Shown: positions 1-13,600, counted from the stretch's first letter. The stretch: DNA of 13,722 nucleotides from a virus (IMGVR_UViG_2778261570_000018:1-13722), one strand, 5' to 3'. Made by a program: numbers and translations. Notes: a model not told the origin generated them from the sequence alone.

Positions 1-215
1 GTGCTGCGGATGATTTCCTGTCGGTGATTAACCCGGAATCGCTGGTGATCAAACAAGGCTTTGCTGAACCGTCGCTGAAAGAAGCGGTAGCGGGTAAAGC
101 ATTCCAGTTTGAGCGTGAAGGTTATTTCTGCCTCGACAGCCGCCATTCTACGGCGGAAAAACCGGTATTTAACCGCACCGTTGGGCTGCGTGATACCTGG
201 GCGAAGTTAGGTTAA
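1..215 (+). CDS. glnS: Glutaminyl-tRNA synthetase, C-terminal fragment (5' end lies outside the window)
   Basis: Frame 3 is open from the window edge and reads [71 protein letters not shown] recognise this as the C-terminus of enterobacterial GlnRS. Stop TAA is at 213-215. Confidence 0.9.
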
Positions 216-240
216 TAGGTATTTCGCCACATGAAAAAGT

Positions 241-265
241 AAACGCCGCTACTGCGGCGTTTTTT
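241..265. terminator. Intrinsic terminator shared by convergent glnS and the Dam-like gene
   Basis: AAACGCCGC (241-249) / loop TACT / GCGGCGTTT (254-262), followed by a T-run to 265. The reverse strand also has T-rich sequence after the hairpin (TTTACTTTTT). The stop codon of the minus-strand gene (264-266) sits inside the T-run. Confidence 0.75.
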
Positions 266-1169
266 ACTTCATTATTGCAATTATATCGTTAGCAACTACA
301 CGTGTTGACGCCTTGCAGGAAACCGACCGTCTGGCTGCCATATGATGTACTTTAAACCCGTTTCCTTCATATAGCTCACGGATGTTTGGAGCACCACTAT
401 TTGTTATCACTACCTTAGCGCCGCGCTGGTGGGCATCCACCAACAGTGATACAAGCCGTTTTTGTTCATCGAAACGGAAGCTATTTCCTGAATAGCTGGT
501 AAATCCCTCTGTATCCGGAAGCGGTTCATACGGCGGATCACAAAAAATCACATCGTCTTCACCAGCCGCCTCGATGACGCTAGCAAAGTCTCCTGATACA
601 AAGGAAGTGTTTTTGAGTACGTCATCAGCCAAAAATGCCTCCATCTCTGCATGTGGGAAGTAGGGCGCTTTGTATTTGCCATACCCCACGTTGAACTCGC
701 CATTTTGGTTGTACCGCGTTACGCCATTAAAACAGTGACGATTAAGGTACAAAAATGCGGCAGCATGATGTAGCTGGTCATATTTTCCTCTGTTAAATGC
801 CTCACGCACTTCGAGGTAAGCGTCAGCGTTGTTGTAATTTTTGAAAAAACTATATGACAGCGTGACGAGCGAATGTCCTTCTCGCTGCAATGTCTGATAG
901 AAGTTAATCAGGTCACCGTTAATATCATTAAGCAGGTTGTGGCGAAATCCTGCATTCGTAAATACGGAACCGCCACCAACGAATGGTTCTATTAACCGCT
1001 TACCGTGTGGTAGATGCTCAAGCACTGTAGGCAATTCTGAGAATTTACCACCTACCCATTTGAATATCGGACGCTCATATTCATCCGGAGTCCGAATGGT
1101 GCGCATATAGCTAATTTCAGCCATCGTATCCTGTTTTTCTATGGCTATGCTTGCTATAGATTTACTCAT
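264..1169 (-). CDS. dam: Dam-family (D12 class) DNA N6-adenine methyltransferase
   Basis: Motifs FKWVGGK, IEPFVGGGSV (SAM site), FLYLNRHCFNG, GEFNV and catalytic DPPY, colinear with E. coli Dam by eye. Start set at ATG 1169 (MSKS...), with a GGGGG SD 6 nt upstream and an ATGAGTAA overlap with the upstream stop. ATG 1124 (MAEI...) is an alternative. The 333-aa form in the ORF track would run through the upstream gene. Confidence 0.85.
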   Translation of the reverse strand: MSKSIASIAIEKQDTMAEISYMRTIRTPDEYERPIFKWVGGKFSELPTVLEHLPHGKRLIEPFVGGGSVFTNAGFRHNLLNDINGDLINFYQTLQREGHSLVTLSYSFFKNYNNADAYLEVREAFNRGKYDQLHHAAAFLYLNRHCFNGVTRYNQNGEFNVGYGKYKAPYFPHAEMEAFLADDVLKNTSFVSGDFASVIEAAGEDDVIFCDPPYEPLPDTEGFTSYSGNSFRFDEQKRLVSLLVDAHQRGAKVVITNSGAPNIRELYEGNGFKVHHMAARRSVSCKASTRVVANDIIAIMK

Positions 1170-1842
1170 AGAGCACCCCCTTATTCGCTTCGAAAACTGC
1201 CTTTGCGAATCCATGTGGAGTAGCACTTCGAAAATTAGCCCTGTCAGGCCCTGGTGGCGCGGCATGGATTCTGTTATCTGGCTTGCCTAATGATTCGTCC
1301 ATTAGGGCATCAGGCATGACAAAGCCCTGGCCGCTCCAGAGGCATGTTTTTTTGGTGTAGTTATCTTCCTGACAATATGCAGTGAAGAAGTAAGGGTGAA
1401 AGATGTGATCTGGCTTACGCCAGAATGTCGATATTTTGCTGACCGGATTTTCAATCATGTACGGACAACCGATCATCTTTGCAATGTCATAACACTGCCA
1501 GACAACCTGCATTGCTTTGAACTGGAAAACCGGATCTTTATTAGCCTTGTCCGAAAACCAGCGCGCGCCGGAAACAGCCAGGTCAGTACACGGTGGGAAC
1601 CCGGCCAGAAACACGATGCGCTGCAAATTCTTACGGAGAAAAGCGTATACTTCATCGCTATCGATGATCGCACTAATACGCGTCAGAACGGCACCTGATT
1701 GCATCCGCTCGTCACTGGTCGATAAGTGCTGTGGATCGACGATAGCGGCATCGACACCGTATTCCAGCCAGGGGGCAACCATTGCCCCCGTAAAATCACA
1801 AAGACTCACAACAAGCGGTCGGTTATTATCGTTCTGCTTCAC
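1162..1842 (-). CDS. Compact C5-cytosine-methyltransferase-like protein (about 226 aa)
   Basis: Motif IV-like [19 protein letters not shown] (PC catalytic dipeptide), motif VI-like MIENP, degenerate motif [10 protein letters not shown], and C-terminal [15 protein letters not shown] resembling motif X. Start chosen at GTG 1842, with GGAGG 9 nt upstream and a 17-nt overlap with the rdgC-like stop. The ATG at 1914 would lie deep inside the upstream gene. Confidence 0.55.
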
Positions 1843-2731
1843 CGCCAATGGCCTCCACCAGCGCGTTAAACAGTGCAGATAATTCGCCCGTAAAGAGCAC
1901 GAAATCAGCATCAAATCGTTGTGCTACATCCTCCCGGTCGATATCGTCGTTCTGGTCATAGAGATCATCACAGAATGTCAGGGCTTTGATACTCATATCA
2001 TCGTTGACTCTGAACGACGCACGGTCCATCCAGTTAATTGCAACGGTCGTAGCTACTTTCCCCGCCTCAATGTGAGACATAATCTCGTCGGACTGTAGAT
2101 CAACTTTGTTGCAGCGAACGGCACCACCATTATCGAGCAGACCCTTTAATGTGGCGTCTTCACCTGCTGTAAATCCGGCAGGGAAGCCGCTTTTAAACCA
2201 CTCGGTCATTGTAATTTCCAGCGGTTCGCGTGGTGTGAATGGAATGACAGGCAGGCTGCCGAGCGACTTTCGCAATAAAGCCAGCTGGTCCTCTGCCTTT
2301 TTGGCGCTGCTTGCCTCAACGAATACCAGATGGTTGCTGCGGTCGATCAGGATTTTGGCGAGTGATTTTCTCGTGAACGCGCGAGGCAAAAGTGAATGCA
2401 GGACTTCATCTTTAAGACTGTCTCTTTCCGTTTTCTTCAGCTTGCGGGCTTGCTCTTCTTCGAGTTTCAGGACTTTTTTCTGCAACTCTTCCTTGAGCAC
2501 CTGCGAGGGGAGAATTTTTTCTTCTCGCTTATGCTGTATTAGCAGAAAACCCTGGTATTCATGGGTGAGGTTGTCACCAAGAACAGGTGTCCAACCGACT
2601 TTAGCTGTGTCCTGAGAACCGCAAGGAGTAAACACGAATTTGCTAAGAGCATCGGATACTTCTGCGGCACTCCAGTTAACTTCACGTGAAAGACGATAGA
2701 TGAAGATGTTTTTGAAAGCGACTGATCTCAT
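1826..2731 (-). CDS. rdgC: RdgC-family recombination-associated DNA-binding protein (mobile paralogue)
   Basis: 301 aa, colinear with E. coli RdgC as I recall it. Shared blocks: [100 protein letters not shown] and a GGEA.R C-terminus. Confidence 0.9.
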
Positions 2732-2737
2732 GTTTCA

Positions 2738-2781
2738 CCAATTGTGTTAGAAAATTCTATTCAATTATCTAACACAATTGG
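2738..2781 (-). promoter_or_regulatory. Perfect 14-bp inverted repeat flanking a TAGAAT hexamer, between the spike gene and rdgC
   Basis: CCAATTGTGTTAGA (2738-2751) and TCTAACACAATTGG (2768-2781) are exact reverse complements, separated by a 16-nt AT-rich spacer. On the minus strand the spacer contains TAGAAT. The downstream arm overlaps the weak GGTGA RBS of rdgC. Confidence 0.6.
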
Positions 2782-2790
2782 ATGTGTTTT

Positions 2791-3444
2791 CTATCCCTTC
2801 TTGAAATCAAAGTTGCTTGCGATAGCCTGGAAGGTGCCTCCAGCCTTGAAATCAATATTTTCGTCGGCTGTCACAGTAATGTTTTTGCCATTAACGCTGA
2901 TGTTATCGGCTGATTTGACGTTAACACTCCCTCCCGCATTCACTACTACATCAGCCGGACCAATGATGTATATCTGCCCTGATTCATTCATTCCAATCCT
3001 TGAGCCTGCTGCCGTATTCGCTATTTCATATCCACCGCCAGCCGTTCGCACTTCGAGCACATTGTTGCGGTGAATCACGAAATCTTTTGTCGCCGAAAAT
3101 TGCGGGCGGGGAGGCGCTCCGTCTACTTCTGGTGGCGTCCAGCCGCTACCATTGCCTGACGCCTCCGGCGCGACGTTTGGTACTCCGCCAGGCGCATCCT
3201 GAGCTGCGCCAACTATCATTGGGCGTCTGGTATCAATTCGACCATTAACATCCAGATAAGGAAACTCTACCCATACCAGGTCGCCTTTTACTGTAGGTAC
3301 AAAAGCGTTTCCGATGGGTAACAGGTATTCCGCCCAGGGTAGATCGTCATCAGGAACGCCATTCCAGTCAGGTAAAACACGGACTTGAGCACGCATAAGC
3401 CCTGCCGGGTGCACAGTTCCAACAATTTGCGCTCTACGCTTCAT
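2791..3444 (-). CDS. Phage baseplate/tail-tip central spike (gp5 / gpV / VgrG-OB-like)
   Basis: The N-terminal pattern GTVHPAGLMRAQVRVLPDWNGVPDDDLPWAEYLLPIGNAFVPTVKGDLVWVEFPYLD...RPMIVGAA fits the gp5/gpV OB-fold signature. The C-terminus is beta-helix-like repeats (VNAGGSVNVKSADNISVNGKNITVTADENIDFKAGG). ATGA start/stop overlap with the upstream gene at 3441-3444. Confidence 0.65.
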   Translation of the reverse strand: MKRRAQIVGTVHPAGLMRAQVRVLPDWNGVPDDDLPWAEYLLPIGNAFVPTVKGDLVWVEFPYLDVNGRIDTRRPMIVGAAQDAPGGVPNVAPEASGNGSGWTPPEVDGAPPRPQFSATKDFVIHRNNVLEVRTAGGGYEIANTAAGSRIGMNESGQIYIIGPADVVVNAGGSVNVKSADNISVNGKNITVTADENIDFKAGGTFQAIASNFDFKKG

Positions 3445-4421
3445 TTGTTCGGCACTCCCAATATCATTCGTGTTGTGTAGCCTACGCGGTCTTCAAAGTG
3501 CGCAACATTTTTTACTATCAGCTTACGGGGCATTGATTCATCAATGCGGTTTTCCTGGTCATAGCGGTATACGATAATCTCTATCACCATTCCCGGTTTT
3601 ATATCAGGATTGCCTGCGACTTCTATATCCATTTTGGGGACGAGAGACAGCTGCATATTGCGAAGAGTTTCCATATCAGAGTCGGATATATAACGCACTG
3701 GGAGTGAGCTATCGCCATATTCGACGTAGCCATCGGTCATGGAATACCCAACAAAACGATATTGATTCTTTGCTGTTGTCGCATGTTCCTGTTGGAGTAG
3801 GCGCATTTTGGACAAAGTGTATTCTGCTTTAGGGTTATTCCCCTCGTAGGTAAATGATGGCGTTTGCTTCATCAGATCAGCCAGGGTGTAAAAGTTAAAT
3901 TCCCCCCGGCATACCCAACATAATGCACCTTTGTCTCGCGCTATCTCCGAAAGCATTTTTGACGGTTTGTCACCGGCATTCAGATGATATGTAACTGCGC
4001 GTTTTAGCACGCTGCTGGTAATTTTAAGTTTGCCGGAATATGCCTTGAATATAGCGTCTGGTGTTTTGTTGGTATGTAAATTTGTGCGCGGGGAGGGGAT
4101 CTTAAACCTGCGCACGTCTTCACTGACAGCAATAACGGTAACAACATCACCAGCCAGCATTGCAGACGTAACAAAGAAATCTGTTTTAAAAGTGCCTGCA
4201 TTACCGTTTGGATCGCCCATTTCAGCCACCAGCGATGCACCGTATTTGGCTTTCCAGTCATCAATTACGGTGCCGGTAGCGTCATGAATTTCCAGTTTTA
4301 GCAAAGGGGCTTTGAGGCTGGTTTTTTCTACATATACTGCGGTAAAAATCCAGTCTCGTGGCACTTTGTTATCGTTAATGAGCACTGACTGTAGAAAATA
4401 TTGTTGTAACTCCTGGGCCAC
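3441..4421 (-). CDS. Probable tail/baseplate hub protein (gp27 / P2 gpD-like), 326 aa
   Basis: Position immediately upstream of, and coupled to, the spike gene. There is weak by-eye resemblance to the gpD/gp27 layout (LKLEIHDATG...GASLVAEMG...GTFKTDFFV...VTVIAVSED, then KPSKMLSEIARDKGALCWVCRGEFNFY). GTG start at 4421 lies 3 nt after the upstream stop (TGATAAGTG). Confidence 0.4.
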   Translation of the reverse strand: MAQELQQYFLQSVLINDNKVPRDWIFTAVYVEKTSLKAPLLKLEIHDATGTVIDDWKAKYGASLVAEMGDPNGNAGTFKTDFFVTSAMLAGDVVTVIAVSEDVRRFKIPSPRTNLHTNKTPDAIFKAYSGKLKITSSVLKRAVTYHLNAGDKPSKMLSEIARDKGALCWVCRGEFNFYTLADLMKQTPSFTYEGNNPKAEYTLSKMRLLQQEHATTAKNQYRFVGYSMTDGYVEYGDSSLPVRYISDSDMETLRNMQLSLVPKMDIEVAGNPDIKPGMVIEIIVYRYDQENRIDESMPRKLIVKNVAHFEDRVGYTTRMILGVPNK

Positions 4422-4424
4422 TTA

Positions 4425-5192
4425 TCACCCCATAGATATCGAGGTTTCGGTAATAATACGTTTTGCGTCCAACTCCCATGCTGTGATCACGTCTGCAATC
4501 ACACTTATCGGCGCTTGTGTGGCATAAATACGCTCTTCTCCAATTGGTGCTGAAACATCCGTAAAGCCGACTTCTTTGGCATCCTGTATCGAGCAAATCA
4601 ACGGGACCGGGACACGAACAAGGTGAGTGGTGGCTTCAAATTGTGTACCTGTCATCAGGCGAAGCCGTGCGCCCAGCGAATTACACATCAGACTCATGGT
4701 CGCTTTATCAGTTGCCATTAACGTAACGTCATACGTCAGAATGGCCTGGGTGTATTCCAGTTCTGCTAAAGGCATTCCGGTATCCGGTTCGCAAAAACTG
4801 GCTACTTTTTTGCGGTCAATCTGCTGATCATCGTTGATATAATTGATATCCATAGTGCGTGAGATATTGACCAGGGGGAGAGCATCCCGGTTAATGTTCT
4901 GGTTTTCAGGTTTTCTCCCTTGCCCGGCATTTGCGCGACGAACTGCTTTAAGAAACTCGATCGCATTGTCGAAACGGGCCACATAGACACGCTCTGCTGG
5001 TGGACGATTCAGGAATGACGCAAAGCGTTTTTCTTCCGGCGCGGGGGCCACCAGTAAGATATCAGAAAAAATGTTGCTGATTAGCGTCGCAAACGCGTTA
5101 TCCACGTTTTCAAAGCCCGTGGTCTGGAATTTTCCTGTGCGTGAGGTTTGCCATTCACCTGTTCGCGCCAGGAGGGTTTTATTTGAAGTCAT
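4425..5192 (-). CDS. Hypothetical protein, phage-associated (255 aa), possibly tail-tip component by position
   Basis: Long ORF with a GGAG SD 7 nt upstream of the ATG and an ATGA overlap with the upstream gene (5189-5192). I recognise no motifs. Confidence 0.6.
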   Translation of the reverse strand: MTSNKTLLARTGEWQTSRTGKFQTTGFENVDNAFATLISNIFSDILLVAPAPEEKRFASFLNRPPAERVYVARFDNAIEFLKAVRRANAGQGRKPENQNINRDALPLVNISRTMDINYINDDQQIDRKKVASFCEPDTGMPLAELEYTQAILTYDVTLMATDKATMSLMCNSLGARLRLMTGTQFEATTHLVRVPVPLICSIQDAKEVGFTDVSAPIGEERIYATQAPISVIADVITAWELDAKRIITETSISMG

Positions 5193-5980
5193 TCGATCAC
5201 TCCGTTTTGAGTCGTATCAAAATTCCTGGCAGGTATGCAGTAGTAAAGCGAACCAACATGTTGTGTGCCGTAGCTAAAAATACGGTGCACGTACCACCAG
5301 CGGCGGGCTACGCCGTTTACCATCTCTTCATTCCATTCAAGAATTGATCCGACGGGGACTTTATTTGCTGCAATACGCAGAATCAGAACATCATCGGTTA
5401 AGCCATCCTGCTCACCGTCTGCGTCAATCGCATGGAAAGAGTCACGCCCGTCCGGGTTATCCAGCACATAAACGATTTCAGGTTCCTGGTAAGTCAGTTC
5501 GCGCTGGTTGTTATCCAGTTCAGTGAATGACTCTTCTCCTGTTTCGTCGCTGACTACCCCATATGTGCCAACATCTGGTCGATATAAGAGAGCCTGAAAC
5601 GCGTCTGGGCTGGATTCAATAATCAGCATCCAGTCTGCGCGGATTTGGTCGTTAAAGGCTTTATGCCCGTTATAGCGTGCTTTTAACTGTGGAGTCGGTT
5701 CTCTGCCAGCCAGGGAAGATGGAAGTATGGCTATATCTGATTCGCCAGCATCCGGAGTAAGGCCACCGTTGCTATCAGCAAAATTATCATGGCTATCAGC
5801 TTTGGCGGCGGGTTGCTCTTCCAGAATGCTGAATGAATCCGAACCGGTATTGCCATGTTCCGGCGCGCCTCCTGCATTCGCTTCAATCGGCGCTGGCGTT
5901 TCTCTCTGCGTGCTGTCATGTTCTGACTCCTTACTTGCCAGGTTTGCATCGTCAGCAAACCATTCGTCAAAACGGCCCAT
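5189..5980 (-). CDS. Hypothetical protein with acidic, low-complexity N-terminal region (about 263 aa)
   Basis: Long ORF. Start set at ATG 5980 (MGRFDEW...) because GAGGA lies 5 nt upstream. The track start at 5992 is a TTG. The N-terminal ~100 aa are D/E/S/P/A-rich and the C-terminal part looks globular (..RRWWYVHRIFSYGTQHVGSLYYCIPARNFD). Confidence 0.6.
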   Translation of the reverse strand: MGRFDEWFADDANLASKESEHDSTQRETPAPIEANAGGAPEHGNTGSDSFSILEEQPAAKADSHDNFADSNGGLTPDAGESDIAILPSSLAGREPTPQLKARYNGHKAFNDQIRADWMLIIESSPDAFQALLYRPDVGTYGVVSDETGEESFTELDNNQRELTYQEPEIVYVLDNPDGRDSFHAIDADGEQDGLTDDVLILRIAANKVPVGSILEWNEEMVNGVARRWWYVHRIFSYGTQHVGSLYYCIPARNFDTTQNGVIE

Positions 5981-6074
5981 AAGCATCCTCAAAGGTCGAT
6001 CTGTCAGGTATCGAAAGGAAGATTTTCGGGAGATTGTGATTTTGGATGAAGGAGGGGGAATTCATAAAATGCAC

Positions 6075-6103
6075 TTGCGCACAGTGCAACGGTGCGCTAT
6101 AGT
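6075..6103 (+). promoter_or_regulatory. Candidate sigma70 promoter and operator of higBA-1
   Basis: TTGCGC (6075-6080), 17-nt spacer, TATAGT (6098-6103). The spacer carries nested inverted repeats GCGCAC(6077-6082)/GTGCGC(6092-6097) and TGCAC(6070-6074)/GTGCA(6084-6088), typical of an autoregulated TA operator. Confidence 0.55.
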
Positions 6104-6142
6104 TATGGCATTCAGTAATCCTCACGGAGGATCAAATGGCTA

Positions 6143-6445
6143 ATGACCAAAAAAATTAACATAAAGGATTTCAGGGATGCGTGGCTTGATGATTTTTTTG
6201 AATTTTCAACACCACATAGAAAGATACCTCCTGATATTCATATGACATTGTCACGGAAGTTGGACATTATCAATGCCGCAACTACCTGTAATGATTTAAG
6301 ATCACCACCAGGTAATCGGTATGAGGAACTGTCAGGGAAGCTAAATGGCTATTCATCAGTAAGGGTGAATAAGCAATATAGGTTAATTTTTAAGTGGGTT
6401 AACGGAAAGGCCGAGGACTTGTATCTCGACCCTCACAAATACTAA
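6143..6445 (+). CDS. higB: HigB-family (RelE/ParE superfamily, 'killer protein') type II toxin
   Basis: 100 aa. Contains RSPPGNRYEELSGKLNGYSSVRVNKQYRLIFKWVNGKAEDLYLDPHKY, characteristic of HigB toxins. It is followed by a cognate HTH antitoxin (toxin-first order typical of hig loci). Confidence 0.8.
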   Translation: MTKKINIKDFRDAWLDDFFEFSTPHRKIPPDIHMTLSRKLDIINAATTCNDLRSPPGNRYEELSGKLNGYSSVRVNKQYRLIFKWVNGKAEDLYLDPHKY

Positions 6446-6452
6446 AACAGAT

Positions 6453-6471
6453 ACCCGGTTACGAACCGGGT
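6453..6471 (+). promoter_or_regulatory. Intercistronic hairpin between higB-1 and higA-1
   Basis: ACCCGGT (6453-6459) / loop TACGA / ACCGGGT (6465-6471), a perfect 7-bp stem within an unusually long 70-nt toxin-antitoxin spacer. No T-run follows. Confidence 0.45.
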
Positions 6472-6515
6472 TCTGACCAGAGTCCACTTAATACGCACGC
6501 TAGTAAGGGCAAAAA

Positions 6516-6854
6516 ATGAAACAGGCAACCAGAAAACCGACGACCGTAGGTGATATCCTGCTGTACGAATACCTGGAGCCGTTAGAGCTGAAGATCAACG
6601 AGTTAGCAGAAATACTTCATGTTCATCGTAACACCGTAAGTGCTCTTGTTAATAATAATCGTAAGCTAACGATGGATATGGCATATCGCCTGGCAAAAGC
6701 ATTCGATACTTCTGTAGATTTTTGGATTAATCTTCAGACCGCAGTAGATCTGTGGGAAGTCGAAAATGATATGCGCGTTCAGGAAGAGTTAAGTCGTATC
6801 AATACTGCTGAAAAATTTATTTCTCAGCGGAACCTGAATAAAAAAGCAGCCTGA
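6516..6854 (+). CDS. higA: HigA-family (VapI/XRE HTH) antitoxin
   Basis: 112 aa. TVGDILLYEYLEPLELKINELAEILHVHRNTVSALVNNNRKLTMDMAYRLAKAFDTSVDFWINLQTAVDLW is the classic HigA/VapI HTH pattern. AAGGG SD lies 6 nt upstream. Confidence 0.85.
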   Translation: MKQATRKPTTVGDILLYEYLEPLELKINELAEILHVHRNTVSALVNNNRKLTMDMAYRLAKAFDTSVDFWINLQTAVDLWEVENDMRVQEELSRINTAEKFISQRNLNKKAA

Positions 6855-6873
6855 TATAGTAAAACACATACAA

Positions 6874-6905
6874 AAAGCCCACTTAGCAAGTGGGCTTTCC
6901 TTTGT
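6874..6905. terminator. Intrinsic terminator after higBA-1 (bidirectional shape)
   Basis: AAAGCCCACT (6874-6883) / loop TAGCA / AGTGGGCTTT (6889-6898), followed by CCTTTG. The A-run upstream supplies a U-run for the opposite strand. Confidence 0.75.
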
Positions 6906-6910
6906 AATTA

Positions 6911-7270
6911 ATGAACATTAAACCCATCCGTACAGAACAAGATTATGAGGCCGCACTGCGTGCGGTCGAACCGATGTTCGATAACGAACCGGAAATGAAT
7001 ACTCCGGAAGGTGATTTCTTTGAGGTTATGAGTCTTCTCATTGAGGAGTACGAGAAAAAACATTACCCAATTGAGCCACCATCACCTATTGAGGCCATTA
7101 AATTCCGTATGGAACAGCAAGGGCTGACCGTGAAGGATCTGGAACCGGCAATTGGTAAGTCAAACCGTGTTTACGAAGTGCTTAATGGGACACGAAATTT
7201 GACGTTACCTATGATTCGTCGTTTACATGCCCAGTTTGGTATTCCACTGGAAAGCCTGGTTGGCGTTTGA
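6911..7270 (+). CDS. Orphan HigA(YgjM)/COG5499-type HTH antitoxin-like regulator
   Basis: 119 aa. The N-terminal domain is MNIKPIRTEQDYEAALRAVEPMFDNEPEMNTPEGDFFEVMSLLIEEYEKKHYPI. The C-terminal HTH is IEAIKFRMEQQGLTVKDLEPAIGKSNRVYEVLNGTRNLTLPMIRRLHAQFGIPLESLV. This is the same architecture as E. coli HigA (YgjM) as I recall it. No partner toxin of the matching family is adjacent. Confidence 0.75.
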   Translation: MNIKPIRTEQDYEAALRAVEPMFDNEPEMNTPEGDFFEVMSLLIEEYEKKHYPIEPPSPIEAIKFRMEQQGLTVKDLEPAIGKSNRVYEVLNGTRNLTLPMIRRLHAQFGIPLESLVGV

Positions 7271-7275
7271 GTTTT

Positions 7276-7300
7276 GCGGTCTGGATGACCGCTGTTTTTA
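7276..7300 (+). terminator. Intrinsic terminator after the orphan HTH gene
   Basis: GCGGTC (7276-7281) / loop TGGAT / GACCGC (7287-7292), followed by TGTTTTTA. Confidence 0.65.
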
Positions 7301-7333
7301 TAAAAAATAGATACTAGAAATTTGGTAGCATAT

Positions 7334-8113
7334 ATGAGTACAGATTCATCAGTAAAGAAGACATCTGAATCAGATAAAGAAAATGAGTCCGTTGTTGATT
7401 CCGTCAAGAATACAATGGAATATGTTATAAAAGACAAAGTATTTAATAAGCTTTTTGCATATATTTTTATATCTTTTCTGGTTGTTAACTGGAGAGATAT
7501 ATTAATTTTGTTCAAATCAAAAGAAGATGTTCTATATACTCTGTCAATAGTTTTTACCGGTGAAAAAATACAATTTCTTGATGGCGAGATTTTACCTCCT
7601 TGGTTTGCCCACTTTTTCTTGCCGTTTTTCTATGGTGTGATTGCGTCGATTGTGGCACCAGTAATTACACTTGCGGTATCTTGCATTACAACTAAGGTGT
7701 ACTATAAAATAAAAATTTTGGACAATAAAACAGACGAAAACGAGAAAGAGAAATTAGCAAAAAGAGCCAAGAAAAGAGCTGAGCGTGAAATAGAGGCTAG
7801 CTATAGCCAACAAAAGCTGGATGAAAGAAAAAAAGAACTGGAAGACATTTTAAACAAAATAGAAGATGAAAAAGAAAAATATGATAAAATGAAAGAAAGG
7901 TTTGATGATGCCATAACGCTTACATATAAAAATATTCACATTTTGCCTACTCTGTATGAGAATAGGAAATGTAAAATTGAAACTCCGCAGGATTTATATG
8001 ATTTTATTGCAGCAATAAAGAAAACATCATTCTATAGTACTGATTTTAATGAATTGTTCTCTGATATTTCTCGATTGTATTCTGAAATGCAAACTGATTT
8101 ATCAGAAAAGTGA
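7334..8113 (+). CDS. Hypothetical membrane-anchored coiled-coil protein (about 259 aa), no recognised family
   Basis: Uninterrupted ORF in very AT-rich DNA. ATG 7334 is preferred; the track start at 7322 is a TTG. It has hydrophobic segments LFAYIFISFLVVNWRDILILF and WFAHFFLPFFYGVIASIVAPVITLAVSCI. These are followed by a K/E/R-rich heptad-like stretch (KEKLAKRAKKRAEREIEASYSQQKLDERKKELEDILNKIEDEKEKYDKMKERF) and a ~65-aa C-terminal region. Confidence 0.6.
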   Translation: MSTDSSVKKTSESDKENESVVDSVKNTMEYVIKDKVFNKLFAYIFISFLVVNWRDILILFKSKEDVLYTLSIVFTGEKIQFLDGEILPPWFAHFFLPFFYGVIASIVAPVITLAVSCITTKVYYKIKILDNKTDENEKEKLAKRAKKRAEREIEASYSQQKLDERKKELEDILNKIEDEKEKYDKMKERFDDAITLTYKNIHILPTLYENRKCKIETPQDLYDFIAAIKKTSFYSTDFNELFSDISRLYSEMQTDLSEK

Positions 8114-8114
8114 A

Positions 8115-8137
8115 AGCCTGGCATAGACCACCAGGCT
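8115..8137. terminator. Hairpin shared by convergent genes 7334-8113 (+) and 8149-9342 (-)
   Basis: AGCCTGG (8115-8121) / 9-nt loop / CCAGGCT (8131-8137). T-rich sequence follows on the minus strand (TTCACTTTTCT) and more weakly on the plus strand. Confidence 0.5.
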
Positions 8138-8148
8138 ATATGTGTGGT

Positions 8149-9342
8149 TTATGCTTTTTTTACATACGCCATAAACATTTTTTCAGCATGTTCTTGTGGC
8201 GTTCCTGCCATGACAAGCGCATCAATGAACGCCTGCTTCTTCAGTGCGAACTGATCGGCCAGGCGTTGCTGAAGCTCCTTGTTTTTCTGTTTCTCACGTT
8301 GCAACGCCGCTTCTTTTGCTGCCGCCCGTTTTTTCTGTGCGTCTGACAACTTTCTGGCCTTGGTCAGTTGGTCACGTAGCTTGTCAATCTTGCCGTTGTC
8401 CTTTGCCAGTTTTGTGCTTAAAGCGGCCTGGCGCTTCTGATAGAGCCTCCATTCTCGCTTGGCAGCGTCAACGTTCGTTTTACTGCTACGATTGCGATTA
8501 AACTCCTTCTCGTCTTCTTTTGAGAAGTGTTTGGTTGTACGGCGGCGATCGTCACCAAATGCAATTTGCGTTGCAGCCTTTTGTAGCGCACGAGCAATAC
8601 TCATTTGCCAACTGGCGGACTGTAACCGCGTCATTGAGTGGATCACGTGTTTACAGGCGACGCCTTGCAGCTTCGGGTTGCGAACTTTTGGATAGGCGTA
8701 TTCTTTTGGCGGTGCCAGGGCAAAGTTACCCGCAGTGGCGATGTAACGATACCAGTATTGATGACGACCACAGTCACAATCGAAAGACACTCGCCCGGCG
8801 CACAGTGATTTAGTGATTTTGAGAGCTGATTTATCGTCTTCTGCGATGTCATCAACCATCTGATCCCATTCTTCAAAGCGTATCCGGACGATATGGTGCT
8901 GGTGGACGGATATATCCGATGCTTCTACGCGGATATTAATCACATTGTGGCGAAGAGATACGGGTGTAGCTCTTTTGATACCAGATCCGTCATCCACGGC
9001 GTTATTTGCACGCTTAATATCGATAGCCTGGCTGGATGCCACCAGCTGGGCGTATGTGATGCCAGCCGTCTTGCTGTCATATTTTTCGCGCGTTTTACTC
9101 CGTAGCTTTTCGAAGCCTTTCAGATCGTCTCGCGTAAAGAACGTGCCGCCTTTTTTCTTCCCTAACTTGAGAATATCTTCGACGGATTTGTTCCTAAGTC
9201 TGCCTGGCGTCAGCGTCCGGTGAGCTTGTCGGCGCTTACGGGTTTGTTCTTTCCTGATAAGGTCGAATAAACGCGTGAAGTCCTTAGAGGACAGACCGTC
9301 AGTGATATAGCGCCCGTCCTGGTTTTTCAGGAAATCAGGCAT
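8149..9342 (-). CDS. Phage-associated protein with SWIM-like CxC...CxH zinc-finger motif and lysine-rich coiled-coil C-terminus (397 aa)
   Basis: FDCDCGRHQYW...(38 residues)...GVACKHVIH resembles a SWIM finger with an expanded linker. The C-terminal ~110 aa are K/R/Q/A-rich heptad-like. GGAG SD lies 7 nt upstream, and there is an 8-nt overlap (ATGCCTGA) with the upstream gene. Confidence 0.5.
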   Translation of the reverse strand: MPDFLKNQDGRYITDGLSSKDFTRLFDLIRKEQTRKRRQAHRTLTPGRLRNKSVEDILKLGKKKGGTFFTRDDLKGFEKLRSKTREKYDSKTAGITYAQLVASSQAIDIKRANNAVDDGSGIKRATPVSLRHNVINIRVEASDISVHQHHIVRIRFEEWDQMVDDIAEDDKSALKITKSLCAGRVSFDCDCGRHQYWYRYIATAGNFALAPPKEYAYPKVRNPKLQGVACKHVIHSMTRLQSASWQMSIARALQKAATQIAFGDDRRRTTKHFSKEDEKEFNRNRSSKTNVDAAKREWRLYQKRQAALSTKLAKDNGKIDKLRDQLTKARKLSDAQKKRAAAKEAALQREKQKNKELQQRLADQFALKKQAFIDALVMAGTPQEHAEKMFMAYVKKA

Positions 9343-9664
9343 TTTCTATCTCCGGTTCCGCGCTCGCGTAATCACGGATCTTGTTCCTCAGCCATGCCAC
9401 ATCAGGAAGAGTTAACGTGGTCCCGGCGGGCATTTCTTCCATTTCTGACTCATGGCCCACCAGCACCCGGAATACCCAGCGCAAATCTGCATTGCCATAC
9501 GCCCTGTAGGCTGCAAGGTCTGAACGATATACTTCATCAATCTTTATCGTGTACTGGAAATTATCAGAGTGATACTCCGATACCCGCTTAATCATTTCCT
9601 GGTGAAACAGCGCACGAAAAATATCGTCTTCAATGTACCTATCGTCGAGTCTGCTATAGCCCAT
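9335..9664 (-). CDS. Hypothetical protein (109 aa), coupled to the SWIM-like gene
   Basis: ORF with a GAGGGG SD 7 nt upstream of ATG 9664. It overlaps the start of the downstream gene. I recognise no motifs. Confidence 0.55.
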   Translation of the reverse strand: MGYSRLDDRYIEDDIFRALFHQEMIKRVSEYHSDNFQYTIKIDEVYRSDLAAYRAYGNADLRWVFRVLVGHESEMEEMPAGTTLTLPDVAWLRNKIRDYASAEPEIENA

Positions 9665-9726
9665 AACAAAGCCCCTCAGTCATAACCTGGGGGAAACTGT
9701 ATGTAGGGTGTGAAATGCGAGAAAGC

Positions 9727-9750
9727 AGCGTCACCGGGCCTGGTGACGCT
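9727..9750 (-). terminator. Hairpin/terminator after higBA-2
   Basis: AGCGTCACC (9727-9735) / loop GGGCCT / GGTGACGCT (9742-9750), a 9-bp stem. On the minus strand it is followed by GCTTTCTCGCATTTC (moderately U-rich). Confidence 0.5.
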
Positions 9751-9756
9751 GTGAAG

Positions 9757-10038
9757 TTATGCGTGGAAAAATAATGGACGGATGTTTGGGCGAGCGGTTT
9801 GCGAAGCAACCCAAAGCTCATACTGAGATTGCATACCGGTCCACATTTCGGCACTGGTTCCAAGAGCGGACTCCAGACGAAGTGCCATATCAGCAGAAAT
9901 GCCTGCTTTTTCGTTCAGAATTCGGGAAAGTGCCGTGCGAGTAATGCCTAATGCAGCAGCGGCGTCTGTGACTGACATGTCTCCCAAATATTCACGAAGA
10001 ACCGCGCCAGGATGCGCGGGATTATGCATACGACTCAT
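9757..10038 (-). CDS. higA: HigA-family (VapI/XRE HTH) antitoxin, second copy
   Basis: [76 protein letters not shown] is the canonical HigA/VapI pattern. ATG 10038 has an AGGA SD 5 nt upstream. The track start at 10050 is a TTG overlapping the toxin stop. Confidence 0.85.
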
Positions 10039-10046
10039 AGTGTTCC

Positions 10047-10328
10047 TCAATGATAATCCTGATAGTCAACTAGAATTGCGTCTTCTCCTTCAAATCGGAA
10101 GGTAAGTCGCCAGTTACCGTTTACCGATATTGCCCAGTGACCTTTAAGGTCCGCCCCCTTTAGAGGGTGCAATTCCCATCCAGGCGCAGACATATCGTCC
10201 GGGCGTTTAGCTGTATTAAGAGCAGTCAATTGAATGCGTAGCTTAACCGCATGTTTGGCCTGAATGCCTGCGGTTGAACCTGTCTTGAAAAAGCGTTCAA
10301 GCCCTTTATGGCGAAATGACTTAATCAA
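10047..10328 (-). CDS. higB: HigB-family type II toxin, second copy
   Basis: (L/M)[39 protein letters not shown]...[40 protein letters not shown] matches the HigB 'killer protein' pattern, which normally begins MIKSF. I therefore place the start at TTG 10328 (GGATGGA upstream) rather than at the track start 10391, which lies in the promoter. Confidence 0.8.
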
Positions 10329-10354
10329 AATAATTCCATCCGTGCGCGTAACCT

Positions 10355-10391
10355 GTGTATATACACTACACGCAGAGGGAGCGAAATGCAA
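10355..10391 (-). promoter_or_regulatory. Candidate higBA-2 promoter with perfect 12-bp palindromic operator
   Basis: Minus strand: TTGCAT (10391-10386), 17-nt spacer, TAGTGT (10368-10363). The perfect palindrome GTGTATATACAC (10355-10366) overlaps the -10 hexamer. Confidence 0.5.
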
Positions 10392-10529
10392 GCACTATCC
10401 GTATAGACAGAGTTTCTTCGCCGCCCTGGAATTTATTGACTGTCAACAAGTGACTTTCATTAATCTTAAGGCATGGACCAGCTCGATAGTGAGCTGGGTG
10501 TTATTTACCGATCGAATGGATTCGAAAAG

Positions 10530-10664
10530 ATGAATATTTTTAATAAGCTGATTGATTTATTGAATAAATTCATTAGTGCTTCTTTAACTCAGCAGGTATC
10601 CACGTCAGTGTTTTTGTTACTCTTCTACCTGGTATTGAGGGAGTTAACAAAGCTACTAATGTGA
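10530..10664 (+). CDS. Possible small hydrophobic peptide (44 aa; 63 aa if started at 10473)
   Basis: MNIFNKLIDLLNKFISASLTQQVSTSVFLLLFYLVLRELTKLLM has a C-terminal hydrophobic helix. The DNA is AT-rich, the SD is weak, and the stop abuts the stop of the convergent 217-aa gene. It could be a chance ORF. Confidence 0.2.
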   Translation: MNIFNKLIDLLNKFISASLTQQVSTSVFLLLFYLVLRELTKLLM

Positions 10665-11318
10665 TCAAAGTATCACGGTATCTTCATCAACTTCTTTCCC
10701 AGCCAGTGACTTTGGCTGGGAACTGCCTGCTTTAACTTTTTCATGCCCAATAATGGAAAGGAACGAAGTGAGTATGCCTGTTTTTTGCTCTTTCTCGACT
10801 GTACCGGTCATCTGCTCTACGTAATCCGCACTGGCAACGTTGTGGTATACGGTCGCGTAGCAACACAGGATCATCAGAATATGCTCCGGCCTGATATCCT
10901 GCCAGTTCACCCTGTAGACTTCTTCTCCGTTACCGTTGTATTCGGTATCAACGATAGAGTCGGGGATTTCGAAAGCACCTTTGTTATTTTGCGGCAGGGA
11001 TAATAGCTTCTGGAGTTTTAACTCTCTGTATCTTTCCATCCCGACGATGATTGCTGCTCTGCCATCGGCATGACGGGTCTTGAGAGTCACCTGGCTTGCT
11101 CCGGTGCCAGCGGAGATCGTTGGCGTAATTTCGTCTACCAGTACCTTAAATTTGCTTTTCCGCAGGGCTGCTATAGCTGGAGGAATTTTTTGCTTTTGCT
11201 CCAATGCTGACGCGGGAAGGGGTTTTACTTCGTTAATAATGAGAGCACCGTCTTTCAGTATTGCAGTGAGCATTTGAGGCTTGCTGGTGGTCAGGCTGAA
11301 TATTGCGATCTTTTCCAT
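10665..11318 (-). CDS. Hypothetical phage-associated protein (217 aa)
   Basis: Start set at ATG 11318 (MEKIAIFSL...), with GGAGAAAGGA immediately upstream. The track start at 11360 lies inside the upstream terminator. I recognise no motifs. Confidence 0.6.
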   Translation of the reverse strand: MEKIAIFSLTTSKPQMLTAILKDGALIINEVKPLPASALEQKQKIPPAIAALRKSKFKVLVDEITPTISAGTGASQVTLKTRHADGRAAIIVGMERYRELKLQKLLSLPQNNKGAFEIPDSIVDTEYNGNGEEVYRVNWQDIRPEHILMILCCYATVYHNVASADYVEQMTGTVEKEQKTGILTSFLSIIGHEKVKAGSSQPKSLAGKEVDEDTVIL

Positions 11319-11344
11319 TGTCCTTTCTCCACGGATGACGGATA

Positions 11345-11370
11345 CAAAAAAAGGCCGCACATGGCGGCCT
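11345..11370 (-). terminator. Intrinsic terminator reading on the minus strand, directly upstream of the 217-aa gene
   Basis: GGCCGC (11353-11358) / loop ACATG / GCGGCC (11364-11369). On the minus strand it is followed by seven U (A-run 11346-11352 on plus). Confidence 0.7.
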
Positions 11371-11392
11371 GCTTTGGCGTTATGACTCCCTA

Positions 11393-11450
11393 CCGCGCTT
11401 CGGCTGAAAGTTAATCGTCAAAAGAACCTTCAACGGGAGCCGTTAGCGCG
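11393..11450. repeat. Imperfect long-range inverted repeat (13-nt arms, 32-nt spacer)
   Basis: CCGCGCTTCGGCT (11393-11405) against AGCCGTTAGCGCG (11438-11450). The CGCGCT/AGCGCG and CGGCT/AGCCG blocks pair, with a 2-nt internal mismatch. Confidence 0.5.
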
Positions 11451-11586
11451 ATGGATTATGTGCAGTTTGTGATTTCCAAAATAGTGTCAACTACTTTTTG
11501 TGGATTTTATTTTTTGTCCGAAATTTGGCCTAAATCATGTTGATTTGGCTGATTATTTTTATAACATAAAACTTCATTTTGTTTAC

Positions 11587-12216
11587 ATGAAGGACGGTGT
11601 AGTGAAGTTAAGGGTTTTAGGGACCGCGCTCGCGGCTATGTTGGGATGCGTATCTGTTAATACTGCCAATGCAACTGCGTTACCTGCAAAGTATTGGGCT
11701 GGTGTGAAAGTGTTGCGGAACGCTGAAAAAGGCAATACAGCTGATGATATTTTCAAGTTTTGCCAAAAAGAAAATATCCCTCTGCACCCGGTTGAGCCGT
11801 ACTTTACAGGAAAGAATGATTTCTGTGTGTTTGCGTATACCGCAGACCAAACAGATAAGGCTATACGCAAGACAGGGTATTCTACTCAAGACACTATGGC
11901 GTCCTTAAGTAAAAACTGGTTGCAGTTTGAGGTTTACCGTAGTGAAGGAATGGGAGAGCTATTGCAGCCACTGTATATGCTGGCGTTAGTTCCGGAAGGG
12001 CAGCAGTTCCTTATTCGAAAAGGAATGCTTCGGAAAAGCGATGTAACCGGATTCAATAACACGATGGAGCTTGAACGCTCAATGAAGCAAAAGCAAGCGC
12101 CTAAGCAGCCAACAGCCGAATGTATTAGCAGCGAGATACAAAAGGCATTAAGCGAGCAGCCTTACATTGATCGTGGTGTGGCGGAAATGGCTGCCAAAAT
12201 GAAGTGTTCCAATTAA
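11587..12216 (+). CDS. Secreted protein or lipoprotein of unknown function (about 209 aa)
   Basis: Signal peptide (M)KLRVLGTALAAMLGCVSVNTANA, with a possible lipobox MLGC or SPase I site ANA-T. Start is ATG 11587 or GTG 11602 (AAGGA 7 nt upstream). The track start GTG 11500 adds an implausible AT-rich leader. Confidence 0.6.
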   Translation: MKDGVVKLRVLGTALAAMLGCVSVNTANATALPAKYWAGVKVLRNAEKGNTADDIFKFCQKENIPLHPVEPYFTGKNDFCVFAYTADQTDKAIRKTGYSTQDTMASLSKNWLQFEVYRSEGMGELLQPLYMLALVPEGQQFLIRKGMLRKSDVTGFNNTMELERSMKQKQAPKQPTAECISSEIQKALSEQPYIDRGVAEMAAKMKCSN

Positions 12217-12259
12217 CGTCAAATAGAATAACAAGATAGTAAATTTTGGAGTTAATGAA

Positions 12260-13559: not shown

Positions 13560-13600
13560 TTTATTGGTATCATGCCCCGGCCTGACCGGGGCAAAAGCTA

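Follow-up and report, generated by a model that had tools for sequence, protein, structure and literature searches.

The present analysis concerns a 13,722-nucleotide (nt) stretch of viral DNA (IMGVR_UViG_2778261570_000018:1-13722), referred to as the window, and within it a run of four genes at positions 2,791 to 5,980. These genes had been described in an earlier note, which was made by reading the DNA alone, as an isolated hub-spike module with no other recognisable virion genes nearby. On the basis of homology, we assign the four genes as orthologues of genes 7, 24, 6 and 5 of bacteriophage P1, which encode the head-tail stopper, the tail terminator, the baseplate hub and a spike without a lysozyme domain. 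The region is almost certainly one late morphogenesis operon of a D6-like temperate myophage of the P1 family, which lives as a circular plasmid of about 90 kb. The gene set itself is ordinary and has already been described, and its identification was already known: in the depositors' annotation of Escherichia phage D6, the four genes are listed as similar to P1 genes 7, 24, 6 and 5, with hrdC (RdgC), a cytosine methylase and dmt downstream and genes 25, 26 and mat upstream. The positions of all features discussed below are given in Table 1.

The four genes lie consecutively on the minus strand and encode proteins of 263, 255, 326 and 217 amino acids (aa). They are joined by ATGA stop/start overlaps at 5192-5189 and 3444-3441 and by a TGATAAGTG junction at 4427-4419 between the 255-aa gene and the 326-aa gene, the latter of which begins with GTG. 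For the 263-aa gene, the motif GAGGA is found 5 nt before the ATG at 5980, and the resulting length equals that annotated in D6; this position of GAGGA makes an alternative start at a TTG, four codons further upstream, less probable. The overlapping stop and start codons probably couple the translation of parts required in low copy number, by our estimate in a ratio of 6:6:3:3 per virion in P1. In blastp comparisons with P1 gp7, gp24, gp6 and gp5, the proteins yielded E values of 2e-47, 3e-18, 2e-83 and 4e-63, respectively, and all four match large tail families of the PHROG database (E values from 7.5e-42 to 2.6e-144). Solved chains of P1 obtained by cryo-electron microscopy (cryo-EM) were matched in a phmmer search of the PDB by all four proteins and by the homologue of gp26. 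Pfam and NCBIfam, by comparison, yielded no significant match to any of the four proteins or to gp25, gp26 and Mat, which explains why a reader working without tools was unable to recognise the 263-aa, 255-aa, 109-aa and 397-aa proteins. The gene order of the window, 26-25-cargo-7-24-6-5, compares with 26-25-7-24-6-5 on the same strand in P1 and is identical to that of D6. In P1, genes 5, 6, 24 and 7 are essential for plaque formation, as determined by amber mutation and CRISPR interference (CRISPRi) (PMC10695390).

The origin of the window is well defined by its relatives. In a megablast search with the whole window, phage D6 (MF356679 / NC_050154), a P1-like circular plasmid prophage of 91,159 bp, was matched with 95.9% identity and a coverage of 84% of the window; over window positions 1-7351, the DNA identity to D6 is 96.9%. 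The closest complete record is the 93.8-kb E. coli plasmid pAPEC201603, with 99.0% identity over window positions 1-11638. Matches to the window or to a part of it were obtained in 300 plasmid records, with Escherichia, Klebsiella and Salmonella among the sources. In the index of the assembly collection, 3,750 blocks contain the identical spike protein, mostly on contigs of at least 10 kb, with 914 blocks on contigs of 50-200 kb, and the exact spike sequence is present on many contigs of 88-93 kb. The ten genes of P1/D6 type in the window are all full length and 92-100% identical to their D6 counterparts (blastp), and the four operon genes are single-copy in D6. A plasmid-prophage setting of about 90 kb with a full set of virion, lysis, replication and partition genes is present in D6, and the same was seen in the 49-kb stretch of pAPEC201603 that was inspected.

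The hub assignment of the 326-aa protein is supported by both sequence and structure prediction. The protein matches the P1 Gp6 chain 9vzk_1 in phmmer (7.6e-72), and an AlphaFold2 (AF2) model built from an alignment of 24 sequences reached a predicted local distance difference test (pLDDT) score of 87.2 and a predicted template modelling (TM) score (pTM) of 0.84. In Foldseek, the top match of this model was the P1 baseplate hub 9vzk_1 (TM 0.90, E 4.6e-41), with later matches to the spikes of extracellular contractile injection systems (eCIS) and of the Photorhabdus virulence cassette (PVC), T4 gp27 (1k28_D, 1.5e-15), Mu gp44 (1wru, 4e-14), VgrG and the pyocin R2 hub 6u5h. The model predicts the hub fold in the 326-aa protein, consisting of tandem tube-like beta-barrel domains and a C-terminal domain. 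PHROG 1390 was the sole family match, as neither Pfam nor NCBIfam returned a match at E values up to 0.1; since this reflects the sensitivity of the profiles, it is no argument against the hub fold. Homologues with 44-94% identity were found on contigs of 70-110 kb, and together with the PHROG matches of all four proteins they mark the four as genuine genes. P1 gp6 is a trimeric hub according to cryo-EM (PMC12810830; bioRxiv 10.1101/2025.07.21.665459), and the 38% full-length identity to P1 gp6 suggests that the window hub likewise trimerises below the tube-initiator ring and binds the spike. By orthology to P1, the gp6 trimer would provide the transition from the six-fold symmetry of the tube-initiator rings (Tub, PmgG) to a three-fold one.

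In public records, hub homologues are labelled "tail length tape measure protein", which applies to eight of the homologues collected here and to plasmid records. This label is a misannotation inherited from the tail-length phenotype of P1 gene 6, as the fold and the P1 cryo-EM structures show a baseplate hub. P1 gene 6 does not encode the tape measure, which is Sit (PMC9024508).

The 217-aa spike matches the P1 Gp5 chain 9vzk_q (phmmer 5.4e-54) nearly end to end, with residues 2-202 aligned to residues 7-203, and PHROG 430 with 7.5e-42, while its C-terminal part shows weak matches to DUF2345 and TssI/VgrG. A lysozyme domain, as is found in T4 gp5, was not detected, the 217-aa protein being aligned end to end with the 210-aa P1 gp5, which itself lacks this domain (PMC12810830; PMC9024508). 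In P1, gp5 and monomeric UpfC form a spike complex that resembles T4 gp5/gp5.4 without a lysozyme domain (PMC12810830). A second study independently agrees on the roles of P1 gp6, gp5, UpfC and gp26 (bioRxiv 10.1101/2025.07.21.665459), and the hub, terminator and spike assignments had been reached earlier by P1 proteomics and HHpred (PMC9024508). No gene for a PAAR domain, as in the P1 upfC homologue, is present in the window; in D6, in pAPEC201603 and in contigs with the same spike, it is located 4.5 kb leftward of the interval that corresponds to the window. By orthology, the needle formed by the trimeric gp5 with its oligonucleotide/oligosaccharide-binding (OB) fold and beta-helix would be tipped by the PAAR-like UpfC encoded elsewhere, and the muralytic activity in the D6/P1 lineage would reside on the tape-measure protein Sit and not on the needle. 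Much of the earlier description of the four genes holds. The coupled same-strand arrangement with ATGA overlaps was recovered with coordinates that had been right to within a few bases (the TGATAAGTG junction had been placed at 4421-4427), the gp27/gpD-like hub and the gp5/gpV-like spike agree with the matches to 9vzk_1 and 9vzk_q, and the spike gene is indeed followed by DNA-metabolism genes, namely rdgC and DNA methylases.

The two genes upstream of the hub gene encode parts of the neck and not of the tail tip. The 263-aa homologue of gp7 matches PHROG 1906 over residues 1-263 (1.6e-115), its identity of 45% to P1 gp7 covers residues 99-255 (blastp), and its C-terminal 160 aa match Gp7 in PDB entry 9ums_B (phmmer 4.8e-42). 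The N-terminal part of about 95 aa is acidic, of low complexity and rich in Pro, Ala, Gly and Ser. In P1, gp7 serves as the hexameric stopper in the connector formed by portal, adaptor and stopper, and it docks on the terminator (PMC12810830); its N-terminal helical domain caps the adaptor, whereas the N-terminal 95 or so aa of the window homologue cannot be aligned with it. By orthology, the gp7 hexamer would close the portal-adaptor connector and dock onto the tail. The 255-aa homologue of gp24 matches PHROG 1767 (4e-113) and the Gp24 chain 8jan_y (phmmer 1.6e-14 over residues 13-235 of 255). P1 gp24 resembles T4 gp15 by HHpred (PMC9024508) and has been modelled as a hexameric tail terminator (PMC12810830), so that the gp24 hexamer would be expected to cap the tube and the sheath.

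Two further genes of this type are found upstream in the window. The 109-aa homologue of gp26 matches Gp26 in 9ay5_S/9vzk (phmmer 1e-16) and PHROG 1269 (2.3e-36), and P1 gp26 is the six-fold plug between the hub and the wedges (PMC12810830; bioRxiv 10.1101/2025.07.21.665459). The 397-aa protein corresponds to gp25, which gave a weak signal in P1 virions by tandem mass spectrometry coupled to liquid chromatography (LC-MS/MS) (PMC9024508). The assignment of P1 gp25 to "tail stability" stems from P1 genetics, and the protein is absent from the P1 cryo-EM models (PMC12810830). In the gp25 homologue, a CxC...CxH pattern (FDCDCG...ACKHVIH) recalls the SWIM type of zinc finger, although SWIM was not detected by Pfam, and its C-terminus is a lysine-rich coiled coil.

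Table 1. Features of the window, with the assignments made by homology to P1 and D6; promoter-like and operator-like elements are candidates.
Feature	Position	Strand	Evidence or remark
P1 gene 7 orthologue, 263 aa, head-tail connector stopper	5189..5980	minus	D6 orf69, 98.5% identity; P1 gp7, 45%
P1 gene 24 orthologue, 255 aa, tail terminator	4425..5192	minus	D6 orf68, 100% identity; P1 gp24, 22%, E 3e-18
P1 gene 6 orthologue, 326 aa, trimeric baseplate hub (gp27/gp44/gpD class)	3441..4421	minus	D6 orf67, 100% identity (blastp); P1 gp6, 37.7%
P1 gene 5 orthologue, 217 aa, trimeric spike, predicted N-terminal OB-fold and C-terminal beta-helix, without lysozyme domain	2791..3444	minus	D6 orf66, 92% identity; P1 gp5, 46%
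P1 gene 25 orthologue, 397 aa, "tail stability" protein	8149..9342	minus	D6 orf74, 98%; P1 gp25, 56%; PHROG 1722, 2e-196
P1 gene 26 orthologue, 109 aa, plug of the baseplate with six-fold symmetry, between hub and wedges	9335..9664	minus	D6 orf75, 100%; P1 gp26, 41%
hrdC (RdgC family), first gene of the DNA-metabolism unit	1826..2731	minus	Pfam RdgC, 5.1e-103; D6 orf65, 95%; P1 HrdC, 51%
Cytosine methylase and Dam, same unit as hrdC	1162-1914 and 264-1265		MethyltransfD12, 7.4e-57
Inverted repeat of 19 nt, arms AATT(T/A)TCTAACACAATTG	2738..2781		between spike stop and hrdC start
Candidate late-promoter motif AAATCACAATCTCCCGAAAAT (AAATCACA-N7-xAnnnT)	6022..6042	minus	42 nt upstream of gene 7 ATG
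Second motif copy ATTTCACACCCTACATACAGT	9696..9716	minus	upstream of gene 26
Third motif copy	11455-11475	minus	upstream of mat

The impression of an isolated module arises because the window covers 13.7 kb of a P1-type genome, in which the virion genes are scattered, and because standard profile libraries miss the proteins. It is literally true, as had been observed, that tube, sheath, tape measure, fibre, capsid, portal and terminase genes are absent from the window; the isolation deduced from this is not, as D6 carries these genes elsewhere on the replicon. In D6, the PAAR-type upfC and upfB are located 4.5 kb to the left of the window, and capsid gene 23, sheath gene 22, gene 21, pmgG, the tube gene bplB, pmgC and tub are located 7-14 kb to the left. 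Further round the circle, where D6 also has its wedge genes, follow pmgB, the tape-measure gene sit, pmgA, bplA, 16, R, S, U, the invertible fibre segment and the lysis and dar genes, as well as the portal, protease, terminase (pacAB) and lpa genes. Altogether, the remaining D6 virion genes are spread from 4.5 to 60 kb from the window, and pAPEC201603 has the same layout, in which tail, capsid and PAAR clusters were seen. P1 is known for such scattering, and in P1-type genomes the morphogenesis genes are distributed over at least five clusters (PMC9024508). The claim that no other recognisable virion genes are present is contradicted by the 263-aa stopper, the 255-aa terminator, the 109-aa plug and the 397-aa gp25 homologue. 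These are standard virion proteins of the P1 lineage, with the caveat of the weak mass-spectrometry signal for gp25, and the rest of the morphogenesis genes lie outside the window. The suggestion of an unfamiliar tail-tip architecture with unrecognised parts was correct insofar as the other proteins are virion parts; the 263-aa and 255-aa proteins, however, belong to the head-proximal end of the tail and not to its tip.

Several points weigh against the assignment to a functional P1-type morphogenesis operon. The identity of the gp24 homologue to P1 gp24 is just 22%, and residues 1 to about 95 of the gp7 homologue (window 5696-5980) do not align with P1 gp7. A single-sequence AF2 model of the spike had a pLDDT of 37 and was unusable, so that the spike fold is derived from homology to the solved P1 chain. 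gp25 is linked to the virion by the weak mass-spectrometry signal alone and has no place in any map. The completeness of the source replicon is deduced from its relatives, the source being seen over 13.7 kb. In pAPEC201603 (L003, 22425-23191), gene 24 is annotated as two open reading frames (ORFs), 429 and 321 nt in length, and several of its neighbours are pseudogenes; some members of the D6-like group are defective.

Such defects lend some colour to the first of two other explanations offered earlier, namely that the window stems from a degraded D6-like prophage or plasmid remnant, which has retained the module without other virion genes. Besides the pseudogenes and the split gene 24 of pAPEC201603 and the missing tube, sheath, capsid, portal and terminase genes, it is in keeping with this explanation that truncated D6-like plasmids exist, such as a 75-kb variant without baseplate and fibre genes (PMC6799933), and that records of 74.5-78 kb are among the matches. 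However, all ten P1/D6-type genes have their full length and show 92-100% identity to their counterparts in the viable, plaque-forming D6, the regulatory motifs in the window are intact, the gene classes that are missing here are precisely the ones located beyond this interval in D6, and the identical spike is found mostly on contigs of 50-200 kb. We therefore consider a remnant very unlikely. A hub/spike pair kept for a role outside the virion, be it interference with assembly, hijacking by a satellite, a tailocin or a device like the type VI secretion system (T6SS), can be dismissed as scarcely credible: the hub fold is indeed common to VgrG, eCIS and pyocin hubs, and toxin-antitoxin cargo flanks the operon, but by structure as well as by sequence the P1 virion baseplate comes out as the best match, the genes lie in one operon with those for the neck stopper and the tail terminator in synteny with P1, they are the sole hub and spike copies in D6, their P1 orthologues are essential virion genes, and no satellite, T6SS or tailocin hallmark genes are found nearby.

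With regard to the defective members of the group, the pAPEC201603 element itself may be defective, while gene 24 of the window is intact by contrast. On the 822-kb contig UWNL01000002.1 (L008, 13230-20607), a D6-like element with the identical spike adjoins the chromosomal genes nagE-nagBAC via a fragmented glnS. This junction suggests either integration by recombination between the glnS of the element and that of the host or an assembly chimera.

Given a late morphogenesis operon of a D6-like phage-plasmid, the question of its expression arises. Three copies of the pattern AWWTCACA-N8-A-N3-T were found in the window, where 0.15 would be expected; they are located upstream of genes 7, 26 and mat. 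In the two D6 loci searched (L001 and L005), nine copies were found, each immediately upstream of a gene in the same orientation that has a morphogenesis, lysis or dar function, namely 23, 7, 26, mat, prt, ddrB (dar cluster), 16, pmgB and the orf16 hydrolase. The position given as x in the motif of Table 1 is T, C or G. In relatives that carry other cargo between 25 and 7, the homology ends exactly at the 5' edge of the motif, and upstream of gene 26 the homology to D6 starts at 9728, just upstream of the motif. The distribution of the motif points to a D6-type late promoter. Transcription of the operon would most likely start from the motif at 6042-6022 in late lytic growth, and the homologue of the P1 late-promoter activator Lpa, which D6 encodes, may act there. 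Against a promoter function speak the weak -10 element of the gene 7 motif (GAAAAT) and the difference from the -22 boxes of P1, AAGTTACTT and AAATGACTA, in both sequence and register. An equation of the AAATCACA motif with the P1 Lpa box was considered and rejected, as the sequence differs, the distance to the -10 element is off by 2 nt and no match was found in the P1 locus searched (L004); the P1 late-promoter consensus is based on three annotated examples. A generic scan of the window for sigma-70 promoters and terminators gave a site count no higher than in shuffled sequence. In P1, genes 26 and 25 scored as non-essential under CRISPRi, with an efficiency of plating of about 0.1, despite their position upstream of the essential genes 7, 24, 6 and 5 in the same annotated operon (PMC10695390), a hint that P1, too, has an internal promoter ahead of gene 7.

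Cargo genes have a hotspot in the gap between genes 25 and 7, which in P1 belong to one and the same operon. On its plus strand, it contains a higB-like toxin gene (6143-6445), a helix-turn-helix (HTH) antitoxin gene (6516-6854), a gene for a second HTH protein (6911-7270) and an ORF of 263 aa with coiled-coil and membrane segments (7322-8113). In the relatives L006-L011 (about 5300-7320), a toxin of family PF09907 takes the place of PF05015, with other extra ORFs or none. A second HigB-like/HTH pair is found between 26 and mat (9729-10602, minus-strand ORFs 9757-10050 and 10047-10391); it is present in pAPEC201603 and absent from D6 and L006-L011. A GC-rich hairpin (about 9751-9727) adjoins the promoter-like motif of gene 26.

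On the other side of the operon, the spike gene abuts hrdC and the methylase genes. The palindrome between them looks like a bivalent repressor operator, judged by its sequence, and we take the inverted repeat at 2738-2781 to resemble the C1 operator of P1. A sigma-70-like promoter element, TAGAAA-18-GATAAT, noted in the generic scan mentioned above, overlaps the inverted repeat on the minus strand at 2793-2764, and further copies of the half-site are present upstream of D6 lpa and in the vicinity of repL/icd, where 0.04-0.09 would be expected. The hrdC-methylase genes would form a separate unit, probably repressor-controlled via this operator-like site, and the simplest reading of the adjacency of spike and DNA-metabolism genes is a mosaic genome layout and not a functional link. 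In comparison with D6, the spike has 17 differences, all of them within residues 88-210 and concentrated in the beta-helix tip (window 2791-3180), and HrdC has 14, all within residues 19-181 (window 2450-2731), while hub, terminator and plug show 100% identity to their D6 counterparts. The C-terminal half of the spike and the N-terminal half of HrdC thus diverge more between D6 and the window than the neighbouring regions, which looks like a recombination patch across the gene 5/hrdC junction.

Taken together, the motif, the cargo and the operator-like site lead to a proposal that we give about an even chance of being correct. In the D6 lineage, an ancestral six-gene operon would have been split, the gap between 25 and 7 being an exchangeable slot for toxin-antitoxin and accessory cargo; 7-24-6-5 would be expressed late via their own lineage-specific AAATCACA-N7-TAnnnT motif, distinct from the Lpa box of P1, and the spike gene would abut a repressor-controlled early rdgC-methylase unit. 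If true, this would illustrate the way in which a phage-plasmid accommodates hotspots for cargo within morphogenesis operons that are essential, as a detail of genome architecture and not as a new system.

Among the remaining features, a segment at window positions 11639-12232 is extra with respect to D6 and lengthens an ORF of 238 aa (PHROG 12786), and at 13562-13573 12 nt stand in place of D6 pmgF (D6 locus 27248-27623); contig L011 is like the window in both respects. Neither Rfam at gathering thresholds nor ARAGORN gave a match in the window.

The findings have little import beyond correct annotation. A hub-spike pair that looks like an orphan is the expected picture in phage-plasmids of P1/D6 type, in which the virion genes are dispersed and escape detection by Pfam and NCBIfam. 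The P1 cryo-EM structures of 2025-2026 now permit precise naming of the gp7, gp24, gp6, gp5 and gp26 homologues on hundreds of enterobacterial plasmids.

Among the known systems, D6 is the closest to the window. In its orf69-orf66, orf65-63 and orf74-75, it shares the order, orientation, overlaps and lengths of the genes, the downstream hrdC and methylases and the promoter-like and operator-like motifs. It differs in carrying another variant of the cargo ORF at 7352-8040 and in having pmgF, whereas the window adds the higB/higA pair at 9729-10602 and the segment of the 238-aa ORF at 11639-12232. In P1 (NC_005856, 78455-73704; structures 9vzk, 9ums, 8jan and 9ay5), the six orthologous genes occur in the same order with protein identities of 22-56%. 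There, 26-25-7-24-6-5 form an uninterrupted series, preceded by the late promoter LP26 together with a sigma-70 promoter under C1 control, and the convergent dbn-ban genes come after it, whereas the window and D6 have about 2.1 kb of plus-strand toxin-antitoxin and accessory cargo between 25 and 7, a motif of their own before 7 and hrdC-dmt after 5. The hubs of T4 and Mu, gp27 and gp44, are alike in fold (Foldseek probability 1.0, TM 0.61-0.67 for 1k28_D and 1wru), but sequence identity to the T4, Mu and P2 systems is 12-14% or less, without a detectable Pfam family. The spikes T4 gp5-gp5.4, Mu gp45 and P2 gpV combine an OB-fold, a beta-helix and a PAAR-type tip as proposed here (PMC12810830, PMC9024508), although the cell-puncturing spike of T4 contains a lysozyme domain, which the spike of the window lacks. 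In contrast to the hub-spike pairs of T4, Mu and P2, the genes of the window are not located beside wedge genes and share their operon with the neck stopper and the tail terminator.

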